Shown piece after piece: positions 5,619 through 27,543 of a DNA stretch of 64,000 nucleotides. The notes under the pieces are model-generated. The model did not search any database and was not told the DNA's origin. It saw only the letters and a program-made list of their open reading frames with translations. Every line of letters starts with the position of its first letter. Position 1 is the stretch's first letter. The position numbers and the translations under genes are program-made. The stretch comes from an uncultured delta proteobacterium (GTDB taxonomy: Bacteria; Desulfobacterota; Desulfomonilia; Desulfomonilales; Desulfomonilaceae), in assembly GCA_963789265.1 (NCBI GenBank), contig CAWBKB010000001.1, positions 1 to 64,000 on the forward strand. Reading direction: 5' to 3'.

Positions 5619-5826
5619 GCAACGTGCTCCATTGACAGCGAGCCGCATCTTTAGCTCTTAGAATAATTCTGATAATCCAAAATCGAGATTCGGACAAGTC
5701 CGAACCACCAAAGGACTGTATATTTCAAACTCGTCGTCGGAAGTACTTGAAATACCACCCCGGATCGTCAATAAAGACCAAGAGCACGGTTCACTCTGTG
5801 CCAGGATTGGCTATAGGACGGTATTT

Positions 5827-7077: not shown

Positions 7078-7079
7078 CG

Positions 7080-9818
7080 ATGTCTAATCAGGACGAAGAG
7101 GCTATGGCCGGCTCAAATGAAGAAAGGAGGCGACTGGCGCTTAATTATCTTCGTCATCGCATGAGAGAAGCCCACATGCGCGGGGATGGCTCAACTGTAA
7201 ACCATTTGTGCGCCGTTGCCCTGGAACATCTCCGCAAGTGGCAACGCGAGGAAAATTGCGCTCTCTCCCTCGAAGACTGCTGGTGGGCTGTAGCAATGTC
7301 CTGTTACTGGCTTGTAGACGAGTACATGCTGAGGTACTGTGAAGAATGTCTTAGCAAGGTGCCGGCTGAGGATGAGGGAGCACAAGAGCTGGCTCGGATT
7401 CTCAATGCCGTGGTGAATCTCATCAAGGAACCGCTATCCGAAGCACCCAGCATCCAAGACGACCTCTGGAAGGCCGAATTCCATTGGCTGACCGACGAAA
7501 ACCAGACGGAGGGGATGACTCTCCTGGTATTTGCCATCGAGCTTCTGTGGAGACACCGGCTGTCAAACATGGATTCCTCTTGGCGCGATCTTGCTGCAAA
7601 TTGGCAGGCCAAGGTGAGTGGTTCTGTCCGGCTCGCAGCGCTAGCGGAGGCTCTGCAAAATGTTGTTGGCCGCCTTGCTGTCCAGGAAAAGGTCTTGTGG
7701 CCAGGCCTGAGCGGAAAGGACCCGGATGACTGGTCGGATGAACACGATAGGCCTGAGGTCGGAATTTACAGTGCGTGGAAGGCATGGGTTGCCCGGGACT
7801 GGGATACTTTTGACCGATTGTTGAAAGAGCTTGTGCCAAGTACCTCAATGGAATCTGTTCACGCTGTTCCGCTTTGGCGACTACACGATATGGCACGTGG
7901 AGTAAAAAGCCATCCCCTATATAGGGCTTACTGGGAGGCCCGAGGAGATCCTCAAGTTTTAGGTCTCACCCGCATGAGAGAACGGGTGCTCGCTGGAGGC
8001 TACATTGCGTTTCAGGACATTCGTGACCGTGCCCTAAAGAATTATCTCGCAGCGGTTTGGAGAGAGGGAAGTTCCGAAAACAGAGCCACTGAACGATTTC
8101 ATTGTGTCAGACTGGCAATATTGAATCAAATTGCGGCTCTGAGAATATGGGATTTGGCCTCCTGGCTTCATACGGCGAAACTGATTTCGGAGGTATTCCT
8201 TGAGATAGCGTCCCAAGACGACCGTAGCGGCTATTCTGCTCGCGAGGCCATCTGGTGGACTGTGCTGTCCCTGCATCTGCGAGAAAATGATCCGTTCCTT
8301 AAGCGGGCAATATCGTTACTGGAGCGGACCGATATAGTTTTCACCAGAACGCTTGTCCAGGGATTGATTCTGTCTCGGCCCATTGAATATGGACATGCAA
8401 TGTATGTTTTGTCTGAACTGAGTGATGCCATTCCGGAGGATCTGCTTCCTGAGGTTGCAAAATGGTGGGTAAAATGCGTTCAATTTCGCAATCATTATAT
8501 TCACCCTCTCCAGAATAAACAGGCATTTTTCTGGGGTGAAATTCTGTTGTATATGACTGACGCGGCATCGCTTTGCAAATTTCTACATCCTGGAATGATC
8601 CTGATATCCCAATCGCCAGGGGTATGGGACGAAGACAAACCGGGAATGATCAGAGCATATCTCATAAAAGCTCCTCTGAATCAGGCGAACGAAATAGGAT
8701 TGTCGATGAGACACTCAAGCAGAAAGGCCAACAGAGAAACTATTGCGATCATGCGATCGATATTCGCGAGTGCAGCGCGAGTTAGACACGAACTGACTGA
8801 GCAGGTTGCAGGGGAGACAAGCCCGATCCAGGAGTTTTCAAACAGAGAGCATCCGGAGAGCAGATCCAGGGGGGACAATGAAGCAAGAGGACTTGAAGAA
8901 CTCAAGACAGAATGCAGGAAACGAATTGAGACTTCAACCGATGCGGTTTTTCAGCGGCCTGGAAACGGCCCGTTTCCGATTATGGCTGACATCTACCCAA
9001 ACGGGATCACTGCAGTATCATGGGAACAATCGGATGCAGACCTTGTCCAGCGACTTGTGCAGGCTGTCGACCACTCCAGAGCAACTCACGACGAGAAGGC
9101 TCAATTCTTACTTACGTTGGCACATTTGATACGGGTCGGCGATCCTCATTGGGCAACGTCTATCTTTTCATCCTTCTGTGGTTGGCTTCGATCAGCCGCA
9201 TCAGTCTCAACAGAGGTAGATGAGACGTCTAGCGGTCCTCTCCAAATTCTTCAGTTTCATAGGCGTGGCAATCTGACAATCATGTCTTCACTTGCAGATC
9301 TCGCGAGAGAGATGTCCCGTAGGATACCGGAGCAGGTCGCTGGTCCGGTAGACGCGTGGATCGAGCAATGCGTGTGTTCGGCGGAAATAAGAGCCTTGCC
9401 GAGTGTGATACACTTGGCTATCACCATTGCGCTCAGTAGGCAAGAGTCATTCGGTTACTGCCTGGTACTTTATGTTCACACAATGCTTACCAAGCTGTCT
9501 TGTGCTCACGGCGACGAGGATACGGCGTCTGCACTGATCGAGGTTCTGAACGAGTTTGCATTTATTCTCGGGCTTAATGCTGGAAATGAACGTGTTTTTG
9601 GAGCCGCTAGTGAGGGGCCAAGAGCCTTGTTCCTCCAGGGTCTCGGTCCCTGCCTTGGACCTGTGTCCGGGTCAGATTCTCCGGATGTCCGGCAGGCAGT
9701 AGCATATACCATTCGGGAATGGCAGCGGAGTAGTACAATACCAGAAGAAGTCTCAGGCATTCTTGAGGCATTGCGCAATGACAGGCGAATGAGAGTGCGT
9801 CGGGCAGCATCGAATTAA
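7080..9818 (+). CDS. Large predominantly alpha-helical hypothetical protein with a HEAT-like C-terminus
   Basis: 912-aa ORF starting 2 nt after the HD gene; Leu/Ala/Trp-rich helices; C-terminal DSPDVRQAVA...DRRMRVRRAA HEAT-like motif. Confidence 0.7.
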   Translation: MSNQDEEAMAGSNEERRRLALNYLRHRMREAHMRGDGSTVNHLCAVALEHLRKWQREENCALSLEDCWWAVAMSCYWLVDEYMLRYCEECLSKVPAEDEGAQELARILNAVVNLIKEPLSEAPSIQDDLWKAEFHWLTDENQTEGMTLLVFAIELLWRHRLSNMDSSWRDLAANWQAKVSGSVRLAALAEALQNVVGRLAVQEKVLWPGLSGKDPDDWSDEHDRPEVGIYSAWKAWVARDWDTFDRLLKELVPSTSMESVHAVPLWRLHDMARGVKSHPLYRAYWEARGDPQVLGLTRMRERVLAGGYIAFQDIRDRALKNYLAAVWREGSSENRATERFHCVRLAILNQIAALRIWDLASWLHTAKLISEVFLEIASQDDRSGYSAREAIWWTVLSLHLRENDPFLKRAISLLERTDIVFTRTLVQGLILSRPIEYGHAMYVLSELSDAIPEDLLPEVAKWWVKCVQFRNHYIHPLQNKQAFFWGEILLYMTDAASLCKFLHPGMILISQSPGVWDEDKPGMIRAYLIKAPLNQANEIGLSMRHSSRKANRETIAIMRSIFASAARVRHELTEQVAGETSPIQEFSNREHPESRSRGDNEARGLEELKTECRKRIETSTDAVFQRPGNGPFPIMADIYPNGITAVSWEQSDADLVQRLVQAVDHSRATHDEKAQFLLTLAHLIRVGDPHWATSIFSSFCGWLRSAASVSTEVDETSSGPLQILQFHRRGNLTIMSSLADLAREMSRRIPEQVAGPVDAWIEQCVCSAEIRALPSVIHLAITIALSRQESFGYCLVLYVHTMLTKLSCAHGDEDTASALIEVLNEFAFILGLNAGNERVFGAASEGPRALFLQGLGPCLGPVSGSDSPDVRQAVAYTIREWQRSSTIPEEVSGILEALRNDRRMRVRRAASN

Positions 9819-10462
9819 GTGGGTGAGAGAGTGAGCCCCCTAGCGCTCCTAGATCCCACAAGATCATTCTAGGGGACTATAGTGGCCGGTAAGAGACCCC
9901 TGCCATGTAGCAAGCGTGCGCACCGAGGCGTTCCGTAACCTTCTTTAATTTCCTCCGTGTCTTTCTGTTTAGATCCGCGATCTGGCGAAAGGCTATGCTC
10001 TCTCCACAGTACTCTCTTCCAATCCATCCCCGGCTCCAGGTCAAGCCGCATTCGCTCAGCGGTAATCAGCGCACAACTTCCTTCGCACACCTTCAATGCT
10101 CTCACGGGCACTAATGGCAACCATGATAAGCCCCCGCCATCGGGTCAAGCCTTGGACGCCAAAAGCAGCCCCGTAATCCAGTCCAGAAAACGGATCCGCA
10201 ACGAAGCCCGAGAAGGGTGCAAGGCAGCCTCATCCTCCCCTTGTTGAGGACCTAAGGAGCTCTAAAGCTCGCGAAACTTAATGCGGGCTGGAAACGAATA
10301 CGTTGTAAGCCGGATCACCTTGATCAACCGGTGGTGTCACTCTCATACGGACTTCCCTCATCAAGATATGAGGAGAAAAGTGCTTCCCATTGCCGAGACA
10401 TCATGGGAGGTTTTGCGGCCTCGAACGCGTTCTCCTTTCGACAACGATCGGGAGAAGAACCA

Positions 10463-11377
10463 ATGCAGGGCAATCAAACATGCACTGACAAATCATCCGC
10501 CTCCGAGGCCTCTCCAAATGAGGACAAGCAGGGCCTTTCCTTCTATGAGCGTCAGATCTGCCAGCAGTTTCCAACCACGGAGAATACGCCCTGCGAAGAG
10601 GTCCCCATACCGGCCGATTGCATCGACCGCATATTCCATAAATCTTCGGAGTCAATGGATGAATTACCGGACTCTTCAATTCATTTTATGGTCACGAGTC
10701 CACCATACAATTGCGGTAAACCCTACGATCTCGATCTGAACCTGAACGAATATCTCCAATTCCTCCGCAAGGTACTTGCCGAGACGTTCCGAGTTCTCAT
10801 TCCCGGGGGACGAATGGCAATCAATATCGCGGGCCTCGGCAGGAGGCCGTTCATTCCGTTGCAGGCGCACGTCATGATGCTCGCCATAGAAATTGGCTTC
10901 TTGCCCAGAGGAGAAATTATCTGGGTGAAGGCAAAGGGCAAGGCCGGATCGTGTGCGTGGGGTTCATGGATGAGCGCCAGCAATCCGTGTCTCAGAGATC
11001 TCCACGAATACGTCCTCGTCTTTTCAAAAGCGAGGTTTGATAGAGCCCAGAAAGGGATTTCTACCATAGACCGTGATGAATTCCTGGAAGCGACCACCAG
11101 CGTGTGGTCTATACCTCCAGAGTCTCCGCGACGAGTAAAGCATCCGGCACCCTTTCCGGAAGAACTGGTGGATAGGTTGGTAAAGCTCTACACGTTCGAG
11201 GGAGACATCGCGCTGGACCCGTTCATGGGCAGCGGGACCACGGCCGTAGCGGCCCTCAAAAACTCAAGACATTTCGTCGGATATGAGACTTGCCAGGAGT
11301 ACGTGGCCTCCGCCGAGGCACGTATCAACGGCTTGGCCTTGCCGAAGCCGAACATCTGTGCAGTCGTCTCGGCATAG
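10463..11377 (+). CDS. Site-specific DNA methyltransferase, N4/N6 beta class (probably m4C)
   Basis: Catalytic VTSPPYN precedes SAM-binding DPFMGSGTT; HPAPFPEEL motif; GGAGA RBS before ATG 10463. Confidence 0.9.
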   Translation: MQGNQTCTDKSSASEASPNEDKQGLSFYERQICQQFPTTENTPCEEVPIPADCIDRIFHKSSESMDELPDSSIHFMVTSPPYNCGKPYDLDLNLNEYLQFLRKVLAETFRVLIPGGRMAINIAGLGRRPFIPLQAHVMMLAIEIGFLPRGEIIWVKAKGKAGSCAWGSWMSASNPCLRDLHEYVLVFSKARFDRAQKGISTIDRDEFLEATTSVWSIPPESPRRVKHPAPFPEELVDRLVKLYTFEGDIALDPFMGSGTTAVAALKNSRHFVGYETCQEYVASAEARINGLALPKPNICAVVSA

Positions 11378-11579
11378 CTGTCGTCCGCGAAGGCATCTAA
11401 ATTGTCCGAATCCTTCGCCTGACTGAATTAATCTGGGACTCTTTCGCTGTCTTTCCTTCGGGGCCGTTAAAGCATGAGACCTGCCCAAAATAAGATGATC
11501 TCGGATGAACCGGGAGGTTTTCGGGCCTTAAAAAAGGTCATTTAATAACTGCGAATACTTCGCTCCAGGAGTATTTTTC

Positions 11580-11792
11580 ATGACACGAAGACGCGGTGGA
11601 TATAGAGGCGACAGAGTTTATGTAGTGAAATTCCGTGCGGACGAAGAGTTGAACGCCGCTCTCCAAAAGCTGGCCGATGCGAACCATTCGGCCAAAGCTC
11701 GTGTGGTGAGAGAGATGGTGCTTTACGCTTTGTCCGAGGGGTTCCGAGGCAGCGAAATGTGCTCGGCAAATACTCAATCAGCGGTGGTCTAG
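11580..11792 (+). CDS. Ribbon-helix-helix (CopG-like) DNA-binding protein
   Basis: Alternating beta strand YVVKFR followed by two helices (DEELNAALQKLA; SAKARVVREMV). Confidence 0.6.
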   Translation: MTRRRGGYRGDRVYVVKFRADEELNAALQKLADANHSAKARVVREMVLYALSEGFRGSEMCSANTQSAVV

Positions 11793-12047
11793 AATGCCGG
11801 CCCACGTTTGTGCGGACTTGGAGTTTTAAAGGGTGCAGAACGTCTATCAAGGGCCGATAAAACTTGAGCTGGCCCGCTCTTTGGGCAATCCGAGAGGGCC
11901 CTTATTTTCTGCTTGGCAGTTCTTCCGACGGAGGCTGGTTTTATACTTGTTCGTTGAAATTCACAGCCTTCAAGACATTCACTTTGATTCAGGCCCATTA
12001 GGCTGACTGTCTTTCTGATGAATATCGCAAGAGAGGAGTTTTAGGCC

Positions 12048-12299
12048 ATGGATTCATCGCATAGGACCCGTGCGGGAAGGTTGCTCGGTCAGGTCAGTCA
12101 AGATCTTGGTGAAGAGAATTTGGAAAGCGGTTTGCCCGAATTTCAAAGCTTCCCCAAGCTGCTACGGCAATACACCGGAACTCCCCGATCTTTGAAAATG
12201 AAGCCAGCTAATGTCGGTCACGTCATGGCGCTTGCCGAAGCGTACGGGGAGCTGGCGGGGGAGATCGAGGAACTGAGGATGTCTCTAAGAAAGCTGTGA
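12048..12299 (+). CDS. Small hypothetical protein
   Basis: 83-aa ORF with GAGGAG RBS; coiled-coil-like C-terminus. Confidence 0.45.
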   Translation: MDSSHRTRAGRLLGQVSQDLGEENLESGLPEFQSFPKLLRQYTGTPRSLKMKPANVGHVMALAEAYGELAGEIEELRMSLRKL

Positions 12300-12780
12300 G
12301 ACAATGAGGACCGGTTTTTCTCTACGAATATGGCCGCTACGGGATGAGGGCTTCTGCAGAACGTATGCGTTCAAAGGCCCGTAATCCGCTTTCCTTGAGA
12401 TTTGTCATTTTGGGCGGCCCAGCTCTTCGAGTTTGAGCTTTTCCAGGCTCAATTCGGCTCTCGGGCATGTTGTCAATGCTATGGGCGCTTTTTTCAGACC
12501 CGAGCAAACGCAAAGAAGCCTCTATCACTATGAATCTGAGATGCACTGAAAACATCCGATTAAGAAAATACTCATAGGGACTGGCCTCGCACTTCGAGGT
12601 TGTCAGGACTACCGACGTTGAGATCTGCACCCCCAGGTCATGATGTCCGACGAGTTCGATGTTTTCTGATGTTTTCTCAACGTTTTCTGGACAGGCTCAG
12701 GATTTGAGTTAGGCTTGCGGCTGAACCTGACGATGATATGAGGTCAGGATGAAGCGGCATGGACCCCATGGCGAAACGTC

Positions 12781-14532
12781 TTACCCATTCTCTGTTCCCG
12801 CCTTTTGTTCGTAGGCACTGGCGAGCTCTTGGACCGTCGCAAAAAAGTTATCATTGCCCACCAAATCGGTGAGTCCATAGCGATCCAGCTTTGCTTTTAC
12901 CTCTTCTGACACTCCGGCAAACACAAGCTGTATCCCCTGATCTTTCAAAATCTTGTATGCCGAACGGAGAGTCTCCGCAGCAGAGAAATCCACATCGTCC
13001 ACTCCGGATGCCTCAATGCCGAACCACTTTAAGGGAGGTTGCGCTCCCTGCACCAAATCAAGGACCTGCTGGAACAAGCATCCAGCGTTGGCATAGTACA
13101 TCCCATGAGTGAAACGGTAGATCAGGAGCCCAGGAGCCGCCTGCGCAGGCTTGGAAACCGCTAGCCTCTGCCAACCATTGGGTGTAGCCGGTACCAGTAC
13201 CCCATTCTTCGGTCTATATCCGTGGCGGGTGTGTGCGATTAGGGAAAGAGCCATGGCAAATACAATGCCCTGCTCGACACCGGCGAAGACCACCACTGCG
13301 GCAGTCAGTAGCGCTACCCAAAACTCAACCGGTGCCTGAGCATGGATTTTTCGCATTCCTTTGATATCAATTAGATTCACACCAATGAGAAGGACGATGG
13401 CGGACAGGGCGGCCTTAGGCAAGTATTCAAGTGGAGCCGCAAGGAACAGCAACACGAGAATCACGATTACAGTCGTAGTGATCTGCGCTAGCTGACTACT
13501 TCCGCCGGCGCTGTCGACCATCTCTGTTTTCGTCGGGCTGCCATTCACAACGAATGTTCCTGAAAGCCCTGCACCAAGGTTGGCAAGACCGAGGCCGACC
13601 AGATCCGCGTCTTCGCTGAAACGTTCGTTGTACCGGGCGGCAAATGCCCGGGAAGTGGCGGCACTTTGGGCTAAAATCACCACAAAAATTGAGAATGCCA
13701 GTGGAAGGAGCTTCCATATGAGGCCCCAGGACCAAGTGACGTCCGGTAAGCGAAGCGTCGGGAGCCCACTAGGGACCGACCCCAGAGTGGAAACACCATG
13801 AGACGGGAGGTTGAGTGCCCAGCTCGCGACAATTGCACCGATTATTGCGATGAGTGCTCCAGGCACTTTCTTCGAGACCATCTTAATAGCCACAACGATT
13901 ACGAGCACAATGATCCCAATCGCTAAGTGGATGGTATTTGTCTGCTCAATGTGCTGCACACTGTGCACAAGGCGTGTGGCGATGTCGCTCCCGGCATTCG
14001 GAATTCCGAAAAGTCTTAAAATTTCACCAAGGGCAACCTGGATACCAACCCCGGTAAGGAAGCCTACGAGCACGGTACGCGACAGGAAATCCGCCAATAA
14101 TCCCAGGCCAACAATGCGAGCAATTATTAGAAACCCGGCTGCCATAATTGCTATTACGCTGGTGAGGGCCACGTACTCGGCGGACCCGGAGACAGCGAGG
14201 CCAGAGAGACCGGCTGCCAACATGGCCGCCGTCGCGGAATCAGCCCCGACCACGAGATGCCTGGATGACCCAAACAGGGCATACAGGCCCATGGGAATGA
14301 GCATGGTGTACAGGCCGGTGATTACCGGGGTGCCGGCGATTTCCGTGTACCCCATCACCTCGGGGATGGCCAGCGCGGCTAGAGTGATACCGGCAACAAT
14401 GTTAGCAGGCACCTCCGAACTTTTGACGGGCAGCATTCCCTGTAAGATTCGTAATCGCAATCCCTGCCTCTCACCCTTTGATCCGTTTACGTAAGTCCTC
14501 TTCACCACTCGGGCGGTTGGATGAAACGTCAC
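12781..14532 (-). CDS. sulP: SulP family inorganic anion transporter with STAS domain
   Basis: AGITLAALAIPEVMGY and GSSRHLVVG signatures, many TM helices, C-terminal STAS (DVDFSAAETL). Exact start uncertain. Confidence 0.93.
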   Translation of the reverse strand: MTFHPTARVVKRTYVNGSKGERQGLRLRILQGMLPVKSSEVPANIVAGITLAALAIPEVMGYTEIAGTPVITGLYTMLIPMGLYALFGSSRHLVVGADSATAAMLAAGLSGLAVSGSAEYVALTSVIAIMAAGFLIIARIVGLGLLADFLSRTVLVGFLTGVGIQVALGEILRLFGIPNAGSDIATRLVHSVQHIEQTNTIHLAIGIIVLVIVVAIKMVSKKVPGALIAIIGAIVASWALNLPSHGVSTLGSVPSGLPTLRLPDVTWSWGLIWKLLPLAFSIFVVILAQSAATSRAFAARYNERFSEDADLVGLGLANLGAGLSGTFVVNGSPTKTEMVDSAGGSSQLAQITTTVIVILVLLFLAAPLEYLPKAALSAIVLLIGVNLIDIKGMRKIHAQAPVEFWVALLTAAVVVFAGVEQGIVFAMALSLIAHTRHGYRPKNGVLVPATPNGWQRLAVSKPAQAAPGLLIYRFTHGMYYANAGCLFQQVLDLVQGAQPPLKWFGIEASGVDDVDFSAAETLRSAYKILKDQGIQLVFAGVSEEVKAKLDRYGLTDLVGNDNFFATVQELASAYEQKAGTENG

Positions 14533-14752
14533 GAAGGCGGTTCGGGCAACCTGCCCCCGGATTATTTACCACTAGTCATGTCAGAGGCATAGTGCCTTTT
14601 TTGTTTGAACAGGCGCCGCAGACCATGCCCATGTTGGATTCGAAGAGATCCGCCTTGCAAAGTTGAGGCTGAGGAGAAATGAATATGCGGTGGGGCGGTC
14701 ACCTCTCCGCCTTTCAGTTTCTCCAGCGTTAATTTCGTTTATAGGAGCGTTT

Positions 14753-15511
14753 TCAGGCGCTTAAGCCCGAACGCCGACCCCCGCGAGCCGTGCCGACGTA
14801 TTCAGCGTCCTCGATCACTTGCCAGAAATCGGACCTGGCCTTGATGTCCCCTGGGTCTTTGCAGGTTTGCCGTTGGCCGTATTTGGTCGGGATGGGAGCA
14901 GTGAGTTTGATGTCGGACCAGACCACCCGATAAAGATGCGGCACTTCCAACTTCAGGAGATCGATCAATTTGTCCTGTGCATCTTGACCGGCCTTGTCGC
15001 AGTCCAAGCCCAGGTATACGCTCTGGCCTGACCACAGCGTCAAGACACCGACAAGGGCATCGATGCTCCGGGTGGCTCCGCCGGTAGCGACGACGTTTGT
15101 GAAGCCGAACGAGTAGCAACACTCGGCGTCGATCTCCCCTTCTACCACGAGAAGAGCCCTGGACGTCTCCGCCTGAGCCAGTCCGAACATGGACGAACCG
15201 AGGGAGCCGAGGGTAATGAATCCTCGATGGTTCTTGAGGTCCTTCCCGGCCAGAGACCTGAGCCGCAGAGCGGATACCGAGCCGTCACGGTTTGTGAATT
15301 CGGTCACAAGGGTCTTCGGGACTCTATCAGTCGGGTCTCCTGGCAGATATCGGACCCTAAAGTGTTCGTACGCATTGTCCGTCGCCCCGCGACCTCGAAG
15401 GTACTTTTTCAGATACCCGGTCGAGTTTCGGCTGTATCGGGTCAGCAGCGGGTAGCCACTGACAACGTTCTCACTTAACGCTTCAGATTGATGAGATCCT
15501 GATGGGTACAA
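14753..15511 (-). CDS. TOPRIM (DnaG-type primase catalytic) domain; probably the C-terminal part of the upstream ORF
   Basis: YLRGRG, LLVVEGEIDA, VATGGA, YLGLDCDKAG and KDPGD motifs; overlaps the upstream ORF by 29 nt in the +1 frame. Confidence 0.8.
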   Translation of the reverse strand: MYPSGSHQSEALSENVVSGYPLLTRYSRNSTGYLKKYLRGRGATDNAYEHFRVRYLPGDPTDRVPKTLVTEFTNRDGSVSALRLRSLAGKDLKNHRGFITLGSLGSSMFGLAQAETSRALLVVEGEIDAECCYSFGFTNVVATGGATRSIDALVGVLTLWSGQSVYLGLDCDKAGQDAQDKLIDLLKLEVPHLYRVVWSDIKLTAPIPTKYGQRQTCKDPGDIKARSDFWQVIEDAEYVGTARGGRRSGLSA

Positions 15512-16826
15512 GGACCGCTTTGAGCTGCATCAGTCGAGATACCGACAAGCAAGTCCGGTGGGCTTCAGTCGGGAACTCTCCGAATTCCTGGGCCGTGGCC
15601 TTGAACAAGTGGGAAATAGGTCGAGCGCTGCCATCCCCGCAGGCGAAACAGTTGTAGAGAATGGTGCCGTCGGTACCGATGGAGATTCCGAAGCTGGGAT
15701 TATGATCGGTGCCATGATCATGATTTACGCAAGCCAGTGGACAGGAGCCGTCACTCCAGTGACCATTGAGCGTTGTCCGTCCGCGGTAGGAGTTCAGCGA
15801 TTTGTGGACCTCCTCGTGCAAGTCCGGGTAAGTGTAAGCGGCTTCGCCCACGTACTCGGAAATAGGCTGACCGAAAATCTCATGGAAATCGTCTTCTCGG
15901 TTGAGTCTGTCGAGCAGATTGTAGGTTGAGTAATAAAGCTCCAAAGAGCGAACGCTCCTATGATCCCTGGCGTGGACTGCCGCAATACCGAGGATGTTGA
16001 GGGTGAGCTGGCCGGTCTTGTGATTAGGACACCTCCGAGTGATTGAAATCAAGCCAAACTCTTCGAGTCTATTCAGCGATGCTCTCACTGCCCGGTCCTT
16101 CAGAGGCAGGCCAAGCGATCCACGATCATAGTGACCATACAGAATTCTCTCTATGGAGAACTGCCCTTCGATGGCATCCCGCTCCAAAGTCATGTTGAGA
16201 CACCGCATGAAGGCGAAGAACAATGCCTTGCTTTCCAGGTATCGGGTGGCTATAGCCATTGCCGCATCGATCATACGCCACTTGAACAAGGTTCTCCTTC
16301 GCCCGAAGACCGTTTCAAGGACCGGATTTCTCCGGCCAACCGAGCAATCTGGCCTCGACCCTAGCACCGGGACCGGCATGGCTAATTCCACCAAGGGGAT
16401 TTGATCCGACAAGAATCGTTCCCGTATCGCGGTAAAAAGCTGTTCGACCTTGACCCTCTTGCTAGGTCTCGCCCTTCGATTCATTGCAAGCTGCCGGTAG
16501 AAGCGAACAAGGCCGTAAACATTGGCCACATAATCGCTCTGACCCAGTTTCAACAGTAAACCCAAGTTAACCAGTCGCTTGAGGGTATCATGCAGCCGCA
16601 GCAGGATTTCGGGGACCGGGATGACCAGATGAGTGAGATCCAGCCGTAGTCCCTGGCTCCGCGTGGTATGGCCGTAGATGGTTTCGAGGAATTTGTGCTC
16701 GCTTAAGGTCAGAGCCAAAAAGGGCCCCACGTGACGGATGAGTTCAAGGAGAAGCGCCCATTTCGATGACGACCAGGTAATCGTACGCTTTGACATGTTC
16801 TCATCCTTTGCGAAAGAATTTTCCAT
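15483..16826 (-). CDS. Tandem winged-helix (replication-initiator-like) protein with C-terminal CHC2 zinc finger
   Basis: CPLACVNH...DHNPSF...NCFACG primase Zn-finger; GLPLKDRAVRASLNRLEEFGLISI resembles wHTH recognition helices of phage O-like initiators. Confidence 0.7.
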   Translation of the reverse strand: MENSFAKDENMSKRTITWSSSKWALLLELIRHVGPFLALTLSEHKFLETIYGHTTRSQGLRLDLTHLVIPVPEILLRLHDTLKRLVNLGLLLKLGQSDYVANVYGLVRFYRQLAMNRRARPSKRVKVEQLFTAIRERFLSDQIPLVELAMPVPVLGSRPDCSVGRRNPVLETVFGRRRTLFKWRMIDAAMAIATRYLESKALFFAFMRCLNMTLERDAIEGQFSIERILYGHYDRGSLGLPLKDRAVRASLNRLEEFGLISITRRCPNHKTGQLTLNILGIAAVHARDHRSVRSLELYYSTYNLLDRLNREDDFHEIFGQPISEYVGEAAYTYPDLHEEVHKSLNSYRGRTTLNGHWSDGSCPLACVNHDHGTDHNPSFGISIGTDGTILYNCFACGDGSARPISHLFKATAQEFGEFPTEAHRTCLSVSRLMQLKAVLVPIRISSI

Positions 16827-17139
16827 CCTGTGATAAAATGTTGCGAGATGGCAGAGGACTGGAAGGATAGCCCCCGATTGCCTGGCCGTCTCGCGAGAAA
16901 GTCGGGGCTGGTCGACTTGGTGACCCCATCCGCTATAAAACGTCTCAGCGTCACGGAAACCTGACCGGTTTGCCTCACTGAGCTGATCTTCCCTGAAGGA
17001 TTTGCCGCGTTTTTGTCGGCTAGAATAGACCTCAACACAACGTAATCACATGCGATATAGCTCAACATCCTTCCCGGCCGTTGCTAAAAGAGCGTAAACC
17101 TCAAGGAAGGGGAAGCGAAGAGGGATAGAGAGAACCTAC

Positions 17140-17270
17140 AAGGTACGAGAAAAACCAAGTACAAGAACCACTAAGTACAGTAACATCATCAAGTGCAGAA
17201 AAAACCCATAAGTACAAGAAAAACAACCAAGTACATCAAATTCCATAGAAGACACCATAGTGGAGGTACA
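17140..17270 (+). repeat. A-rich array of A(A/G)GTAC-core repeats (iteron-like)
   Basis: GTAC at 17143, 17159, 17175, 17212, 17231 and 17266, plus GTGC at 17193; spacings 16,16,18,19,19,35; strand strongly A-rich and T-poor. Confidence 0.7.
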
Positions 17271-17350
17271 TGAAAAAACGACTCATGAAGCCTCACGAAT
17301 TCCAGAAGCAAAGAAGAACCCTATAGAGAACTCCAGTCATAACGACATAC

Positions 17351-18263
17351 TCAGCCCTTGCAGTGTTTTTTGAGAACAGGATCAAACTGGAAGTAATAGG
17401 CGTACGGGTTAGTCTGGTGTCGTCTGATATTGAATGGTCTTAGTCTGCACTCATCGAGAATCTGTTGGATCACCCTATGAACGTATGCTGATGAACCGAA
17501 GTCGGGAAGTCCAATGCTATAGCCTTTCTGACCGTACTGGATGATGTCCGCGGTAGTAGTGATCGGCTCAATCTGCTTTCGCGCAATCGATAACTCCAGG
17601 AGTCGGCTCATCACGAAGAAATTCATTAAGTCATCGTCATTTTCGAGGATTATGTCCCAGAACCGGTAAATGAACTCGAATACCTGACTGGTAGTGAGAT
17701 CCGCGAGTCTGTAGGGATTCACAGAAACCGTATGAGATTTATCGGGACGAGGTGACGCTTTGGGTGCGGGTATCTCCAGAGTCACCACCGGTAGGTCGAG
17801 AGCATCAAAGTCCCACTGAATAGTTTCGAGTATCCTGGCATTGGTACTCATGCCGGTTTATTGTAAGGGGTCGATTCCGTGAACAAGAGAGGAAGTATTG
17901 CAGGCATCCATACAGATTCACCAGATGAGTGTCCTGGTCGTCTGTTGGTATCAGGATACGTTGAGCCACAAACCGATCAACGAGGGTGGAATCCACGGAA
18001 CACTCGGAGAGCTCAATATAGAGAGACGAACCCCTGAGAGAGCAATTCACGATTCGTTGCAGTGCCCGAAACTCGCTCGATGTCTTGACCATGAAGGGAA
18101 TTACCTGATCCACCATTGCGAGCGCTGGAGGCCAAGTCTTCCACTCTGAGAGCTGTCCGAGACTGGGAGCAATGAGTTTGGTGGTTGGAACCGGCTCGGT
18201 AGCTGATTGAGTAATCTCGGGATTCTCTGGTTCAGGTTTTACGATTTTCAGAGCTCTTGACAT
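17351..18263 (-). CDS. Tandem winged-helix protein paralogous to the N-terminal ~300 aa of 15483-16826; split by a +1 frameshift near 17830-17850
   Basis: The two ORFs (17805-18263, 17351-17851) align in order with the 447-aa protein: VNLYG/ANVYG, LPVVTLEIPAP..PRPD/IPLVELAMPVP..SRPD, YG..SIGLP/YG..SLGLP. Confidence 0.7.
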
Positions 18264-19246
18264 GATTTCACCTCGCTATGCTTTGCGTTGTAGTTCTCCC
18301 AGTGCCATGACTTGATGGGGTTGTCTTTTCCGGGTACCCAGGTGACAGACCAATTTGCGGCCCGTAAACCGCTCTTGATGGTGCTCACAAAACACTGATG
18401 ACGATCGACGTTGATTCTCCATGCTCCTCGGAGTTGATTCACCACGAAGCGACTGCTGGATCGCAACGAAAGATTCTCAATCGGGGGAAACTTCTTGAGA
18501 GCCTCAGCGAATCTTTGAACCCCGAGGTACTCGGCGTCGTGAAGGGAGCCCCAGTACCGAGTGTGGTAAATTTCTTGTAAGAGCTCGCGTCCATCTGGTC
18601 GGATGAGTAGGTAAGCTACGGAGATATGGCCACTGCCTTTGTGTCCCGTGATCCCACTGGTATATGCAGTGTGTTGGCCGTCACGCTCGCGTAGGTGGAT
18701 AAGGTCACTCATGCTCAAGCCTCTCTTTGAACAGTTACCTAGATTGCCAGGCCAGCCCGACCAGCCTGGCCACCACGTAGTGAGAAGCGCAAGAATGCTC
18801 AGCGTCTCAATAGAGGAACGTCGGAGATGGTCGGAAACCTCCCTGATTTCCCGGGTGAGGCCCCACAATGAACTGTTAGGGCAAGTCGTGATTAATGGAT
18901 GGTAATCTTGCCAGTTGTGCCGCAGTCCCCGTCGTCGTCCAGAAAGAATGCGACTGTCTCCTGTGCCAGGTAAAGGCAGTGCTGGCTGATGCTGACGAGA
19001 AGAGTAGGCCTGCATATCTGGTGAGTTAAAGTCGGCCTCGTGACAGGCAGCGCGGGCTTGAGCGCAGGCCTCAGAAGCAATGCGTGCGATCTCTGAGACC
19101 TCAGAATCCCAATCACAACAGTCGTAGTTATCGATTCCAATGCGTTCATCGATGGTTTTTGCTAATGAGATTGCGGAAGCAACCAAAATGAAATGGCTGT
19201 AATCTACTTCCTTCGCGATTTTCTTTCTACGTGCCTTCTTTCCCAT
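18248..19246 (-). CDS. Protein with a C-terminal degenerate RNase HI-like domain (possible internal start at 18712)
   Basis: AEYLG, SSSRFVVNQLRGAWRIN and WVPGKDN match the RNase HI fold, but the catalytic Asp positions are Ser/Ser/absent; AGAGG RBS before ATG at 18712. Confidence 0.7.
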   Translation of the reverse strand: MGKKARRKKIAKEVDYSHFILVASAISLAKTIDERIGIDNYDCCDWDSEVSEIARIASEACAQARAACHEADFNSPDMQAYSSRQHQPALPLPGTGDSRILSGRRRGLRHNWQDYHPLITTCPNSSLWGLTREIREVSDHLRRSSIETLSILALLTTWWPGWSGWPGNLGNCSKRGLSMSDLIHLRERDGQHTAYTSGITGHKGSGHISVAYLLIRPDGRELLQEIYHTRYWGSLHDAEYLGVQRFAEALKKFPPIENLSLRSSSRFVVNQLRGAWRINVDRHQCFVSTIKSGLRAANWSVTWVPGKDNPIKSWHWENYNAKHSEVKSCQEL

Positions 19247-19307
19247 GATGTGTTCCTTTCCTTGGTAAGGAGTTACCTAAAGTCGTTACTCCCGTGCGCA
19301 AAGTGAA

Positions 19308-19332
19308 ATCCGGGGAGAAACGATCCCCGGAT
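19308..19332 (-). terminator. Stem-loop, possible intrinsic terminator
   Basis: ATCCGGGGA-7nt-TCCCCGGAT followed on the minus strand by TTCACTTT. Confidence 0.4.
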
Positions 19333-20021
19333 CTCAGGTAAACTGATACTTCCTACAGCCCCGGCACCTTGAAATTACGGCGATTTCGTTTGCTTGCGGC
19401 GGCACAAAGATTGCCACTCCTTATCGCCCCCACACGAAATTTGCGGAGATCAAAGGTGACCGGCTTCGGAATCAGCCATTAGGTCATGTGCTCAAACGTT
19501 GGTGGCCCAGGACTCAGCCTAGGAAGGGAGTGTGGTTTTGGAGTGGAGATTTCCGACAAATCAGCGCCGGACACTACCAATCGGAAGCCGCTCAGAACAA
19601 CCAATTTCACGTGTCTGATTCCGAGGCCGCCCCCTTCTTCGGCGTTAAGTTTTTCGGCCCTTGATCGGTTTCTTGGAGCGTTCCCAACGGTACGAGCAGC
19701 CTCCCGTGGTCCAAGTAAACCAGCGGTGGCTTAGGCGGCGATAGGACCTGACGAGAATCATTGAAGGTTCGCCATAAGGAATCCTCAATATGAACAAGTT
19801 TCCGACGGCAGGGTGCGCTTCAAAGGACAGTGTTTTCGAATTGGATTGGCAGTAGTTCGCTTTGGTTTCCCTTAATGGCAGGCTCTGTCTCTATCAACAT
19901 CATGTTGTCGTCCTTCTCCAAGCCGCTGATGGACTCACCTGCACGGGGAAATCGCATCAGCGACCTTCTAATGTAAAAACTATGGGGTTGTGGAGTGCCT
20001 TCGCGACGTCAGTCTGTCGCA

Positions 20022-21056
20022 TTAGCATGGCCGGTCACAATCGGAACAGAGGGACGTTCCGTACCACAACAATCCGGGGCCCTCAACCTGTGAGTAGAAG
20101 CATTCACCCTGCAGTCTAGCTATCACTTCTGCTCTCTTTACTGAGTCCTGCAGCAGCATGTCCGTTTGGGTGCTGTCAGCCCCGTTCCTCAACAGAGCCA
20201 TAGAGATCCCCTCGAGACCGAGCAACACCGCATAGGTGAGTGCTGTATTCCCTGAGCCGTCTCTTGCATTCACGTGGGCACCCTCGTCAATGAGGAGCTG
20301 GACCATCTCCATCATTCCATGCCTGCAAGCGGCGATCAGTGCTGAATCCACCCGATCGTCATTTTCAGACCCATAAGGCCTTTCGATGAGAGCCCCGTAC
20401 TTGATTAGTAGCTGCACAGCATCTCGGTCGTCGTTAAATACTGCGGTCAGAAGAGGATGCAGAAAATTTGGATCGGCACCTGCTTCGAGGAGGACTCGAG
20501 TTGTCTCGAGGTGACCTTTCTCGGTCGCGGCCGTCAGGGTCGTGTATTCTTCACCGAACGGCGGTCCTGATGGGAATTCTGACTTGCCACTTGCATTTAC
20601 ATCCGCCCCGCCCTCCAATAGAAGCTTCACCATTTCCAAATCTCGCCGGCGTGCGGCTTCAATCAGAAGCGTAGAAGAGAAGCCATATTTCGCGTTGCCT
20701 CTAAAAACTGTCTGGTCAGCGCCAGCCTGAAGCGGTCCTCGGACGATCTCTTTGTGGTCCGCAGAGAATGCGACGTTGATTGCCTCATTCATTTCGGCTT
20801 CTAAGTGGGACAGATGCTTGTGCTCCAGCAACAGTCTGGTCATTTCCAGATTTCCAGCTCGCGACGCGACCACCAGCGGGGCCACGCCAACGGATTCCGT
20901 TTCACTGTTTAAGGGACATTCTCTCAAGAGGTGTATCACCATCTCGGTATCGCCAGCGGTCACAAATTGTGGGAGCAATACTGAGTAGATTTCGCCTATG
21001 TGCTCCTGGACGTAGGCACTAATGGCGTCATTGAGCCTTTGAGCTATTGTTCTCAT
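20022..21056 (-). CDS. Ankyrin repeat protein
   Basis: Multiple ankyrin repeats (LLEGGADVNA, LLIDEGAHVNARDGSGNTALTYA). Confidence 0.92.
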   Translation of the reverse strand: MRTIAQRLNDAISAYVQEHIGEIYSVLLPQFVTAGDTEMVIHLLRECPLNSETESVGVAPLVVASRAGNLEMTRLLLEHKHLSHLEAEMNEAINVAFSADHKEIVRGPLQAGADQTVFRGNAKYGFSSTLLIEAARRRDLEMVKLLLEGGADVNASGKSEFPSGPPFGEEYTTLTAATEKGHLETTRVLLEAGADPNFLHPLLTAVFNDDRDAVQLLIKYGALIERPYGSENDDRVDSALIAACRHGMMEMVQLLIDEGAHVNARDGSGNTALTYAVLLGLEGISMALLRNGADSTQTDMLLQDSVKRAEVIARLQGECFYSQVEGPGLLWYGTSLCSDCDRPC

Positions 21057-21157: not shown

Positions 21158-21556
21158 TTACGAACTCGGCAAGGTGGGGGCTGCGGAGCCTATCCCGTCT
21201 GCATCGTTCAATTCTCTCGGTATCCATGAGAGGCGCCAGCCTCGATGACTTCTCATCAGAGTCTGAGCCTGGGCTGCAAGATCCGCGAGATGAGGTTGAT
21301 TGACTTGCCACTCCCCCATGACCTGGTTGACGACCAATCGGGAATCCCCGAGGATTTGTACCTGTCCGACATTATTCTCTTCCAGGCAGTTCATAAGCGC
21401 TAGGAGGGCCAAGTACTCGGCAATGTTGTTGGTTCCATGACCGAGTTTCTTAGAGAATCGCGTGACCGCGTGACCTTGGTCATCGTAAATGATGAATTTG
21501 ATAGTCATCGGTCCAGGGTTTCCGGAGCATCCTCCGTCGAAATAGGCTCTGTGCAT
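21158..21556 (-). CDS. rnhA: Ribonuclease HI
   Basis: YFDGGCSGNPGP, TNNIAEY, GDSRLVVNQ and WIPRELNDAD; DEDD residues present. Confidence 0.9.
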   Translation of the reverse strand: MHRAYFDGGCSGNPGPMTIKFIIYDDQGHAVTRFSKKLGHGTNNIAEYLALLALMNCLEENNVGQVQILGDSRLVVNQVMGEWQVNQPHLADLAAQAQTLMRSHRGWRLSWIPRELNDADGIGSAAPTLPSS

Positions 21557-21755
21557 GGCCGATATTCCTATTCTGTAGATGAATGTGGGAGGAGATAAAG
21601 ACGGGGATGCGCTCCTCCCGTTAGAGGCAAAAGAACGAACCGGTAGAGTCATTCGCAGCCACTTACGTTGGTGAGGTTGTTAGGGGTGAACTGGAGCCTT
21701 AAGGTTGCTCCAAAGGTGAGCATGCAGAAGCGTCAGTTGGTAGGGAGAGATTTGG

Positions 21756-23318: not shown

Positions 23319-24347
23319 CTAGAGAGATCCCTCTACGTTGCGAATCGTTGGAATAAGATCGTCGGGATCTTCGACGTTCACCAGAATGGGGTGCAACCAT
23401 TTCAGCACGAGGTTGCGATCCCAGGGGTCTTGTGTTGAACCCGTCCAAAAATGATGCCAATGAGCTCGCCGGACATGCGGCCGCACAGAAAATCTTTGCC
23501 TTGCCCCGGAAAGGTTTTTGCCCGTTGCCATGACTTGAACTTCGTTGTGGTTCCTCAGAGCGGGTCCAACCCGAAAGCCGACATTCCATACTTTTGGAGA
23601 AGTGAGGACCTTCCTAAAATTAATGGCCAGCGGTCTTTGAGGGCGTGTTTCATCACCGATTGAGGACCGAATGTCATTGTTTGCGGCCGCGAGGTACAGC
23701 AATATCGACAAGGCAACATGCAGCCGGCTCTCCAAGTCCTGTTGATCATGGTGGTCCAGTCGTGTAGCTCCCTGAGGCTTTCGCCGGAGCTGCAAAATAA
23801 AACCCCCCTTTACCACCGCATTGACGCTCTCCTGAAGGGAGCCAATGAGGGGCAAGTAGTCAATTCCCAGGGCGCAATCCCGGTCATTCACCCATCCGAT
23901 ATGTAGGATCGGTGCGGAACAATGATTGGGATCGAAAGAGAGCATTGCAAAGAATCCTAAGTACGATTGCCCGTCGATAGGGATTGCCGATGGCAATTCA
24001 ACATAGACGCACCACTCTGGGAGGCGGCACAGGATTTCGACAGGAATAGCTCCGCCCATCTTGGTTTTGAGAAGCTCAAGGCACAGCCCCTCGTGGATCC
24101 TGTATATGCCCTGGGACGGGCGCCACGCAGCCATGAGATGGAGGAGGGTGGCTAGAACAGTCAGATTTGAGCCTACCTTCACTCGGTCACTGGCTACGAT
24201 GTTCTTGAGCTCCTGGAAAGGCATGTAACACCATGCGGGCCAGCGCTTCTTGTGCTTCGCTCTTGTCCTTTCAATTACCTTCCAAACCCTGTTCGGAATC
24301 AGTTTCTCGACGCGTGCGAGGATGAGCTTTGGCTTAGGTACTGACAT
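23319..24347 (-). CDS. AcrVA2/FinQ family protein (anti-CRISPR-like)
   Basis: WPAWCYMP, WRPSQGIYR, LPEWCVYVE, LLYL, VWNVG and RPHVRRAHWHHFWTG motifs in family order; 342 aa. Confidence 0.8.
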   Translation of the reverse strand: MSVPKPKLILARVEKLIPNRVWKVIERTRAKHKKRWPAWCYMPFQELKNIVASDRVKVGSNLTVLATLLHLMAAWRPSQGIYRIHEGLCLELLKTKMGGAIPVEILCRLPEWCVYVELPSAIPIDGQSYLGFFAMLSFDPNHCSAPILHIGWVNDRDCALGIDYLPLIGSLQESVNAVVKGGFILQLRRKPQGATRLDHHDQQDLESRLHVALSILLYLAAANNDIRSSIGDETRPQRPLAINFRKVLTSPKVWNVGFRVGPALRNHNEVQVMATGKNLSGARQRFSVRPHVRRAHWHHFWTGSTQDPWDRNLVLKWLHPILVNVEDPDDLIPTIRNVEGSL

Positions 24348-24767: not shown

Positions 24768-25493
24768 TTACGCGAGCAACTTTTTGACTCTTTTCCCACG
24801 AGCGTAATCGCTCGCCTCTTTTCCCCTAGAATCCTTGGCCCACTTATCCGCTCCTTGGCTAAGGAGAAGCCTTACGACCGAAACATAACCGTTCTCAGCC
24901 GCCTTCATGATGGGCGTGACGCCGTCCCGATCCGCCGTGTTGACAAATGCTCCCGCGTCGAGAAGAAGCTGAACCATGGCTGCTGAGCGTCGCTCGCTGT
25001 CAGATTTCGATAGATTAACATCTCTGAATGCGGCGGCCTGCCACAATGGGGTCCTCCCGTTCTTGTAGCCGATGTTCACGTCCGCACCGTGCTTCAACAA
25101 GATGTCGAGGATTTCTACGCATCCTTCGTACAGAGCGAAGATTAGGGCGGAGTCGTCATCGGGATATGCAAAACTGATATCCGCACCCCGTTTCAAAAGC
25201 CGGAGGACAACCCCATCCATACCCCACGTTGCAGCACAGATGAGTGCCTTCCCAAGAACTTCTCGGTCACCGGCGAGCGCGGGACACACAAAAGGGGCGA
25301 TCAAATCTTTAAGATATGGGGACACCTGTAAACGGTTCCTCGCACTAAACAGCTTCGGCAACCACAAAATGATGGACATAAGGAGCAGCTTGAGATCCTC
25401 GGCCTCATGGGCCCGTGCTTGCAAAGCCTGAAGTTTGGGGCCACTGGTATGCACCAAGTATCCAAAACGACCTGTCGGAAAATCTTCGGACAT
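24768..25493 (-). CDS. Ankyrin repeat protein
   Basis: GADVNIGYKNGRTPLWQA and DRDGVTPIMKAAENG repeats. Confidence 0.9.
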   Translation of the reverse strand: MSEDFPTGRFGYLVHTSGPKLQALQARAHEAEDLKLLLMSIILWLPKLFSARNRLQVSPYLKDLIAPFVCPALAGDREVLGKALICAATWGMDGVVLRLLKRGADISFAYPDDDSALIFALYEGCVEILDILLKHGADVNIGYKNGRTPLWQAAAFRDVNLSKSDSERRSAAMVQLLLDAGAFVNTADRDGVTPIMKAAENGYVSVVRLLLSQGADKWAKDSRGKEASDYARGKRVKKLLA

Positions 25494-27439: not shown

Positions 27440-27514
27440 CTGAATTGTCTCCGTTGGGGGGGATTTACAGTGCAATGCAAAATCGCGAAGATTACTTTAA
27501 AAACGCAGTGCTTT

Positions 27515-27543
27515 TTTGTAGCAAAAACCGGCGGCGTTGTCAA
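27515..27543 (-). promoter_or_regulatory. Sigma70-type promoter for the minus-strand block
   Basis: TTGACA-17 bp-TACAAA with extended -10 TG, on the minus strand. Confidence 0.65.

Follow-up and report, generated by a model that had tools for sequence, protein, structure and literature searches.

What might a locus do that joins two predicted winged-helix (WH) domains to a DnaG-type primase in a single protein, and that carries beside it a second copy of the WH part without the primase? The question is raised by positions 14753–18263 of a 64-kb stretch (called the window below) that forms the start of a 2.59-Mb contig from an uncultured Desulfomonilaceae bacterium with a genome of 6.06 Mb in nine contigs. 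A first-pass annotation had read the two genes as an origin-binding initiator fused to a primase and its primase-less paralog, flanking a repeat array, and the positions it gave for the open reading frames (ORFs) were confirmed. All long ORFs of 14753–19246 lie on the minus strand. The fusion gene is made up of the ORFs 15483–16826 (447 amino acids (aa)) and 14753–15511 (252 aa), which overlap by 29 nucleotides (nt), and the paralog gene of 17805–18263 (152 aa) and 17351–17851 (166 aa), with an overlap of 47 nt; a 524-nt spacer separates the two genes. We put at about even the chance that this locus is the replication-initiation module, with an origin-targeted initiator-primase and the paralog as its regulator, of a family of small integrative elements in a few Desulfomonilaceae.

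As judged from sequence and structural models, the C-terminal half of the fusion is a complete DnaG-type primase, consisting of a Zn-binding domain and an RNA-polymerase/TOPRIM domain with no helicase attached. A search with the 447-aa ORF recovered 24 proteins at E ≤ 0.001, 12 of which are intact fusions of 605–682 aa that all contain Toprim Pfam domains and are called, where the source gives a name, 'toprim domain-containing protein [Desulfomonilaceae bacterium]'; in relatives the intact key protein of the module has a length of about 660–680 aa. Among the five minus-strand ORFs of 14753–19246, Pfam recognized only the TOPRIM domain of the 252-aa ORF (Toprim_2, 4.9e-8) and no family in the other four (E ≤ 0.1). 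The EGEID, DCD and KDPGD motifs are intact in the window and the acidic motifs are invariant in the aligned fusions, in agreement with the intact TOPRIM domain (EGxxD, DxD) described earlier. The Zn finger described with it stood in part: its four ligands (C-x6-H-x23-C-x2-C) are invariant in 12/12 and 13/13 aligned fusions and the domain aligns with the Zn-binding domain of Aquifex DnaG, but the Pfam family zf-CHC2 itself is unmatched in the fusion at E ≤ 0.1. The classical primase spacing is C-x2-H, compared with C-x6-H in the fusion. The same C-x6-H…CxxC module is carried by the stand-alone primases P0018 (332 aa) and P0021 (321 aa).

Profile and structure comparisons point to the same enzyme class. 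Residues 336–654 of an intact relative match the phage DNA primase family phrog_47 (1.5e-21), and phrog_239, a primase/helicase family, is matched over its primase part only (positions 35–312 of 801). Searched against the PDB, the family profile hit the Zn-binding and polymerase domains of Aquifex DnaG (9.3e-9), T7 gp4 (1.5e-8) and other DnaG cores; 12 of the 13 matches at E ≤ 1 are primase sequences. The full-length model of an intact relative has a predicted local distance difference test (pLDDT) score of 72.6, with a poorly modeled region at residues 419–522 (pLDDT < 50). Foldseek returned 33 PDB matches to it at E ≤ 0.001, led by Aquifex DnaG (2.7e-7), and the 25 of these 33 that were listed are all DnaG-type primases or primase-helicases, including Twinkle, T7 gp4, T4 gp61 and E. 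coli DnaG. The first-pass annotation had seen no helicase or DnaB-binding tail; consistently, Pfam and PHROGs detected no DnaB_bind, DnaB_C or P-loop family in the fusion and no helicase or DnaB-binding domain in its conserved neighbors, and the protein ends ∼30 residues past its last motif, without a helicase-binding tail. The NCBIfam dnaG model gave 51.4 bits against a cut-off of 283.6. Because the helicase-binding domain is missing and this score falls below the cut-off, the fusion is classified as a member of the DnaG superfamily and not as a cellular DnaG ortholog.

A tandem winged-helix fold of the N-terminal domain is supported by modeling. The AlphaFold2 model of the first 340 residues, built from an 11-row alignment, has a mean pLDDT of 85.5 and a predicted template modeling (pTM) score of 0.85, and contains two winged helices. 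Matches from a structural search with this model cluster on residues 28–122 and 184–282 and are all winged-helix: the WH of MCM8 scored best (Z 8.2), along with the WH domains of ORC and Cdc6 (Z 6.5–7.5), the extended WH of TFIIE-alpha (Z 7.0) and the two-WH protein SarS (Z 7.0). Of these, MCM8, ORC and Cdc6 were assigned to WH domain 1 and TFIIE-alpha to WH domain 2. The Pi initiator–iteron complex (2nra_C) was matched across both WH domains (185 residues over 26–283, root-mean-square deviation 5.0) with a chance-range Z of 5.9. In the ESM Atlas the domain gave weak leads only, the best at 0.92 (unnamed clusters) and HTH_24/TrmB-type clusters at 0.90, with recognition under the stated threshold. 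In sequence the domain is an orphan. Among 1.84 billion cluster representatives, its profile recovered 15 proteins at E ≤ 0.001, with no length above 680 aa.

The primase-less gene is a paralog of this N-terminal part. All nine of its homologs (9/9) are 303 aa long, and hhalign of the nine paralogs against 12 fusions gave a probability of 99.45% (E 5.2e-22) over 213 columns, aligning paralog residues 42–255 to fusion residues 9–232; the five motif pairs that had been quoted as evidence of kinship all fall in the same columns of alignment A5. By BLASTP of the window pieces, the C-terminal half is matched weakly (E 6e-5, 27% over 117 aa) and the N-terminal half is non-significant (best E 1.6). 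Paralog and fusion have conserved basic residues in common in both WH domains, at invariant alignment columns. In a genome of the same genus, two loci each contain an intact paralog upstream of an intact fusion, with open frames of 307 and 350 aa for the paralogs (ORFs called as 303 and 347) and fusions of 664 and 666 aa. The comparison covered eight complete loci, namely the window and L014–L020; the ninth locus, L004, is truncated at the end of its contig. Because the paralog is present in only 3/8 of the complete loci, it is dispensable for the fusion. A metagenome scan with the paralog profile found only three short contigs.

The spacer between the two genes holds the repeat array noted in the first-pass annotation. 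Six copies match GTACTTGG with ≤ 2 mismatches, in addition to an outlying TGTACCT; the spacing is 15–19 nt, and 35 nt to the outlying first copy. The core GTACTT occurs in four exact copies on one strand within 78 nt (17157–17234), and 29 times on both strands of the whole window where 13.4 are expected. With a GC content of 33–37% against ∼52% for the window, the array is AT-rich. It is conserved in relatives: an array lies at the same site after the paralog stop codon in L014 (eight copies), L015 (five), L024 (four) and L025 (as a TGTACTA variant). The arrays that follow a paralog include those of two short metagenome contigs, of which one has the TGTACTA core. The first ∼275 nt after the paralog stop codon, which hold the array together with a pyrimidine tract of 32 nt and the box TTTACG…TTAGCAA, are near-invariant among the window, L014 and L015, and the rest of the spacer diverges. 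The box recurs as TTTACG..TTAGTAA in the divergent loci L017, L020 and L024. In L017, which has no paralog, GTAC(T/C) direct repeats also precede the fusion.

These features suggest the following scheme. The WH–WH domain would tether the primase to the AT-rich array of 6–8 direct GTACTTGGTGGTTT repeats that lies a short way upstream of the fusion gene, and the primase would lay down a primer on the adjacent conserved pyrimidine-rich tract. The primer would be extended by a host polymerase, and a host helicase would be loaded secondarily. Such a logic would resemble that of ColE2 Rep or pSK41 RepA, with the primase covalently fused instead of recruited. The 303-aa paralog, found in one sub-lineage that includes the window, may bind the same repeats or the fusion itself and so act as a repressor or copy-number brake; it may also autoregulate the promoter region that holds the repeats. 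A bolder version, which we consider possible but doubtful, holds that this is the first initiator with a double-WH origin binder fused to a DnaG-type primase, so that recognition and priming would become a single step that needs neither host DnaG nor helicase-coupled priming. The paralog would then be an anti-initiator on GTAC-core iterons, and GTAC methylation by the element's methyltransferase might gate firing.

Both window genes are interrupted in the assembly. The two fusion ORFs are collinear with the intact homologs and abut between …KAVLVP and SGSHQSE…; the two paralog pieces abut in the homolog alignment between …RHEY and NARILE…. Since each ORF pair abuts on uninterrupted homologs, the breaks are best explained as one-base frame shifts, and deletion of base 15505 opens 763 codons while deletion of 17843 opens 307. 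Public short-read contigs were compared over 14700–18300 (runs X1–X4, with X3 and X4 representing relatives of 90–99% identity). At 15504, the X1 contig lacks the base and is otherwise identical over 773 nt (depth 4.3, flagged low), and the base is also missing in X4 (31.8 of 31.8) and X3 (6.19 of 14). At 17843, where X1 has no coverage, it is missing in X3 (10.1 of 10.1) and X4 (37.1 of 37.1). A base at 17142, within the repeat array, is missing in X2, X3 and X4, and one at 16802 in X1 and X3. Because the annotated ATG at 16826 is no longer in frame once the base at 16802 is removed, the true fusion start is probably the ATG at 16796, which agrees with the start position of the fusion homologs. 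Because the extra bases are missing from short-read contigs that are near-identical or related to the window, the two breaks are probably assembly artefacts in the form of consensus errors, or else private mutations. The '+1 overlap' of the first-pass annotation is thus replaced by a one-base frame break, of which the paralog has one too.

Programmed frameshifting was rejected as an explanation, since all relatives read both sites in one frame. A systematic insertion of G at every GTAC was likewise rejected: removal of a base merged ORFs at only 2/94 GGTAC/GTACC sites and, trivially, at one gene overlap. Of the four single bases absent from the short-read contigs (15504, 17142, 17843 and 16802), three are a G that immediately precedes GTAC on the plus strand. 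The repeats have GTAC as their core too, and a conserved N6/N4 methylase belongs to the element family. This pattern may reflect GTAC methylation that causes base-calling indels and perhaps gates repeat binding.

The surroundings of the module were compared across the eight loci. An RNase H-like gene, c2, lies upstream in 6/8, giving the order RNase H-like gene, paralog where present, repeats and fusion. The c2 protein is 332 aa long in the window and 122–201 aa in relatives, which lack its 180-aa N-terminal extension. It matches NCBIfam RNase HI at 1.3e-5, below the cut-off. At positions that we take to be catalytic, with residue roles presumed from the DEDD scheme, the third acidic position is Ser in 4/6 c2 proteins, including the window lineage, and the Glu (AEY) is kept in 7/7 rows. 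A second RNase H-like gene at 21158–21652 on the minus strand matches RVT_3/RNase H and keeps its acidic residues.

L016 and L017 contain a tyrosine integrase and an HTH_17 gene 4–7 kb from the module, in L017 beside prmA. In L016 an insertion sequence (DUF772/DDE_Tnp_1, 7727–9203) lies between c2 and the fusion, at the place of the paralog. The fusion of L019 (8758–10733) is read in three frames with several breaks, and in that of L020 (2618–4583) a single additional base falls within the Zn-binding domain. Also present in L020 is a gene typical of phage replication/recombination modules (DUF669). Recurrent neighbors among the loci include an N6/N4 methylase and several small ORFs. In L014 the homologs of the small ORFs c7, c4 and c8 follow the fusion at a distance of a few hundred bases; in the window a SulP gene intervenes, apparently as cargo or through a rearrangement within the module. 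No integrase was found near the window copy, the best matches in its own genome lying on other contigs or 1.4 Mb away, and no HTH_17 gene was found with the query used. No relaxase or partition NTPase was seen in the loci scanned. The window contains no tRNA gene, 14000–20500 has no Rfam match at E ≤ 0.1, and promoter and terminator scans were no richer than shuffled sequences (3 vs 4.1 and 3 vs 5.1, respectively).

The N-terminal domain was found only in a few Desulfomonilaceae genomes. The module is present in 5/69 other genomes of the family and in 0/400 other genomes sampled across the phylum, a patchy distribution that fits the expectation for a mobile element. A search of 72,556 plasmid and 50,697 phage records gave matches to the primase half alone (7 and 32 records, respectively); every match listed starts at residue 311 or later, and the N-terminal domain was found in no record of either set. 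A scan of IMG/VR yielded one locus, matched in the Zn-binding region only, and a scan of genome contigs four loci in two metagenome-assembled genome records; these scans and the metagenome scan were each based on one or two peptide patterns. The coordinates of the features are collected in Table 1.

Table 1. Position, strand and description of the features of the module and its surroundings in the window
Feature	Position	Strand	Description
RNase H-like gene c2	18248..19246	-	332 aa; directly upstream of the paralog, 16-nt overlap with the paralog start
Primase-less double winged-helix paralog	17351..18263	-	Split as assembled by an extra base near 17843
Direct-repeat array, 6-7 copies	17133..17270	-	Consensus (T)GTACTTGGTGGTTT; GC 33-37%
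Pyrimidine-rich tract and box	17079..17136	-	…TTCTCTCTATCCCTCTTCGCTTCCCC…TTGAGGTTTACG…TTAGCAA, directly after the array; near-invariant in the window, L014 and L015
Fusion gene: double winged-helix, Zn-binding and DnaG-type RNA-polymerase/TOPRIM	14753..16826	-	Split as assembled by an extra base at 15504
Winged-helix domain 1 of the fusion	16461..16745	-	Residues 28-122 of the 447-aa ORF; AlphaFold2 model and fold matches
Winged-helix domain 2 of the fusion	15981..16277	-	Residues 184-282; AlphaFold2 model and fold matches
Zn-binding domain core	15636..15746	-	SCPLAC…NPSFG…CFACG; ligands C-x6-H-x23-C-x2-C
TOPRIM catalytic core	14846..15157	-	EGEID 15128-15142; DCD within 14987-15007; KDPGD within 14846-14863
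N6/N4 DNA methyltransferase	10331..11377	+	Pfam N6_N4_Mtase 3.5e-42; PADLOC MTase_II 6.8e-99; homologs in L015 and L016
Small conserved ORF c7	11578-11850	-	No family in Pfam or PHROGs
Small conserved ORF c4	12048-12299	+	No family in Pfam or PHROGs
Small conserved ORF c8	12337-12630	-	No family in Pfam or PHROGs
SulP/STAS sulfate-permease gene, intact	12781-14532	-	Between the fusion gene and c7/c4/c8

A number of results weigh against a role in initiation. The fold matches of the N-terminal domain are generic WH matches, with Z values that, by the tool's own calibration, are also reached by unrelated models. Two winged helices were modeled, as the first-pass annotation had predicted; Foldseek found nothing at E ≤ 0.001 for the domain in the PDB or among the BFVD viral models; lambda O-like and 'replication initiator' rows appeared only at E 0.2–0.34. 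The domain has no family in Pfam, PHROGs or NCBIfam, and its profile hit nothing below E 1 among PDB sequences. Against a RepE-family profile of 15 sequences, hhalign returned a probability of 0.17% (E 0.35), and neither the 447-aa ORF nor the paralog has a Pfam match to Rep_3 (PF01051/PF21205); the RepE profile is narrow (45–87% identity), so that a distant kinship with RepE may still exist. No DnaA box (≤ 1 mismatch) was found, the conserved neighbors include no helicase or loader, and the whole-contig loci L015 and L020 show no terminal overlap indicative of a circular form. In double-stranded DNA viruses, DnaG homologs were in every case accompanied by a replicative helicase, as stated in the accessible part of PMC4889955. 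The first catalytic Asp of c2 is Ser in 5/5 rows that cover the position, in the alignment with the window RVT_3/RNase H protein. The fusion is broken as assembled in 3/8 complete loci (window, L019 and L020), and the window island is rich in defence-type genes. The initiator-primase reading of the first-pass annotation has fared unevenly: the architecture is real, as seen in the AlphaFold2 model, the primase matches, the paralog and the array, but there is no detectable sequence link to Rep_3/RepE and the fold matches are generic. The proposed function is plausible.

The repeats could serve other ends. They may belong to the paralog as its operator, because they are conserved with the paralog and not with the WH–WH part of the fusion: between the window and L014 the paralog is 86–96% identical in aa sequence, c2 85% and the primase half 80–81%, and the repeats are near-identical, while the fusion WH–WH part reaches only 58%. 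The spacer as a whole averages ∼84% column identity, with its first ∼275 columns near-invariant. The location of the array between the two genes, in the 5′ region of the fusion gene, would suit a mere operator as well, and the TGTACTA variant accompanies a paralog of 66–71% identity. The paralog would then be a WH repressor in a cop/rep-like arrangement, for which pRN1 orf56/orf904, with an upstream repressor and a replication protein, offers a precedent in layout (PMC4234260, accessible part). The WH–WH part of the fusion would serve protein contacts or the binding of single-stranded DNA or template, and the primase would act in general priming, for example in second-strand synthesis after excision or transfer. 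Yet GTAC-type direct repeats precede the fusion in L017, which lacks the paralog, as do 5/8 loci altogether, and the two proteins share conserved basic residues in both WH domains. In addition, 6–8 direct repeats in AT-rich DNA are more typical of iterons than of operators. We regard this regulatory explanation as unlikely. A direct-repeat array beside a small WH protein could also be a centromere-like site bound by the paralog as a WH adaptor, as in TubR/tubC, and TubR is among the weak Foldseek rows (E 0.47); but no ParA, ParM or TubZ-type NTPase occurs in any locus scanned and a WH domain is here fused to a primase, which makes partition extremely improbable.

Two further explanations dispense with a replicon. 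The fusion might be a DNA-targeted TOPRIM nuclease or an abortive primase that works in conflict or defence with an inactive RNase H-like partner. TOPRIM domains do occur in nucleases (Aravind 1998, as cited in the accessible part of PMC4538821), one source names a fusion homolog RNase M5-like, and the island holds a Cap4-like nuclease with a NACHT/Avs-like NTPase (3604–5648), an HD-CE protein (5827–7077), a type II-like methylase and PDC-M72A ankyrin proteins. The PADLOC match of the fusion to the reverse transcriptase-associated DnaG-like protein of DRT systems, by contrast, is weak (2e-4) and covers 66 residues, and the paralog and c2 have none. Since the homology takes in, besides TOPRIM, the Zn-binding domain and the polymerase subdomain that are specific to primases, and the module recurs with different neighbors, including an integrase in L016 and L017, a defence function is very unlikely. 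The genes could instead be real pseudogenes of a degraded integrated element, with no function. Both are broken as assembled, as are the copies in L019 and L020, a SulP gene is inserted within the module, and no integrase lies nearby, the best integrase homolog of the genome being on another contig with two stops. However, the extra base at 15504 is missing in X1, X4 and X3 and that at 17843 in X3 and X4, the catalytic motifs and conserved residues are all intact in both window genes, and the assembly has other likely one-base breaks at 5027–5136 and 27232–27496. Such decay therefore seems quite unlikely.

Several other observations were made in the island. On the minus strand at 3604–5648, a Cap4-like double-stranded DNA endonuclease ORF (5022–5648) overlaps a NACHT/Avs1b-like NTPase ORF (3604–5082) by ∼60 nt, and one base added anywhere in 5027–5136 merges them; from the sequence, this is probably a single Avs-type defence gene split by an assembly indel. 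Two overlapping minus-strand ORFs of no known family (204 + 189 aa) at 26861–27798 are similarly joined into 319 codons by one base added anywhere in 27232–27496. At 5827–9818 on the plus strand, next to the HD-CE protein (416 aa) comes a protein of 912 aa for which Pfam, PHROGs, NCBIfam and PADLOC gave no match, and the pair may be an undescribed two-gene system. The ankyrin-repeat proteins at 20022–21056 and 24768–25493, on the minus strand, match PDC-M72A, a candidate defence model (9e-27 and 2e-23); the interval between the two holds a phage-family protein (23319–24347; phrog_6160, 1.8e-42) and ORFs of no known family. At the island edge, beside TetR/fatty-acid genes, the minus-strand ORF 28335–28802 matches phosphoglucose isomerase over its final 73 positions only (PGI 414–486 of 486); this gene fragment may be an insertion-site remnant.

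If the module is an initiator, it bears on how bacterial primases can be used. Known plasmid and satellite initiators are WH Rep proteins that recruit a primase, or proteins with a primase of their own, either archaeo-eukaryotic-type (ColE2 Rep, pRN1 ORF904) or DnaG-type and accompanied by a helicase (P4 alpha, T7 gp4). A DnaG-type primase that lacks a helicase and is joined to a sequence-specific double WH would fill an empty cell among these types, and would mean that primases of the bacterial type can be directed to a single DNA site. The full-length protein and its primase-less paralog would offer a simple natural pair in which to study how a truncated initiator controls copy number; Rep proteins with short and long forms that antagonize each other are known (PMC6854812, accessible part). 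The immediate reach is limited, because the family is narrow and so far known only in uncultured soil and sediment bacteria. As the first-pass annotation had remarked, the architecture is not recognized among described replicons: beyond the absence of the N-terminal domain from the records and family databases named above, no description of the fusion was found in the literature searched (which excluded preprint supplements), and the word Toprim is absent from the text, as far as it is accessible, of a 2026 preprint surveying plasmid initiators (10.1101/2024.09.03.610885).

Among known systems, P4 alpha combines a DnaG-type primase, a superfamily 3 (SF3) helicase and a WH origin-binding domain and, according to the available parts of PMC2777425 and PMC4889955, shares with the fusion the presence of primase and WH origin-binding domain in one polypeptide, as do the N15/PY54 RepA-type primase-helicases. 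P4 is likewise an integrative element with a tyrosine integrase and repeat-type origin sites (same sources). It differs in having the SF3 helicase between the parts and a single, C-terminal WH (same sources), whereas the fusion has no helicase and a double, N-terminal DNA-binding part. Pfam and PHROGs gave no match of the fusion to an SF3 (D5-type) helicase family, and the N-terminal domain has no detectable relation to solved structures, the P4 alpha WH among them provided that its chain forms part of the PDB copy used. ColE2-P9 Rep binds its origin and, without a helicase, itself makes the primer that is extended by Pol I (PMC4538821, accessible part), an activity that we propose for the fusion by analogy. 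Its primase is of the archaeo-eukaryotic type (PF03090 + PriCT), unlike the TOPRIM/DnaG-type primase with Zn-binding domain of the fusion, which has no match to Pfam Replicase (PF03090).

The WH iteron initiators (Rep_3: RepE, Pi and RepA; RepA_N of pSK41) resemble the module, with its two predicted WH domains beside a direct-repeat array, but the fusion is no member of them by sequence, as the Pfam and RepE comparisons show. To our knowledge, known WH initiators are 250–350 aa long and have no enzyme domain. The stand-alone phage primases of the T4 gp61 type (∼320–340 aa) possess the same Zn-binding and TOPRIM set as the C-terminal 330 aa of the fusion, but lack an N-terminal DNA-binding domain and work with a helicase. 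pSK41 RepA binds the host DnaG primase and so recruits it non-covalently (PMC5703833, accessible part). The parts of the fusion, and the idea of a primase-carrying initiator, are thus known; their combination and the N-terminal domain family are new. Functionally, the module is nearest to P4 alpha, ColE2 Rep and the WH iteron initiators, and is a member of none of them.

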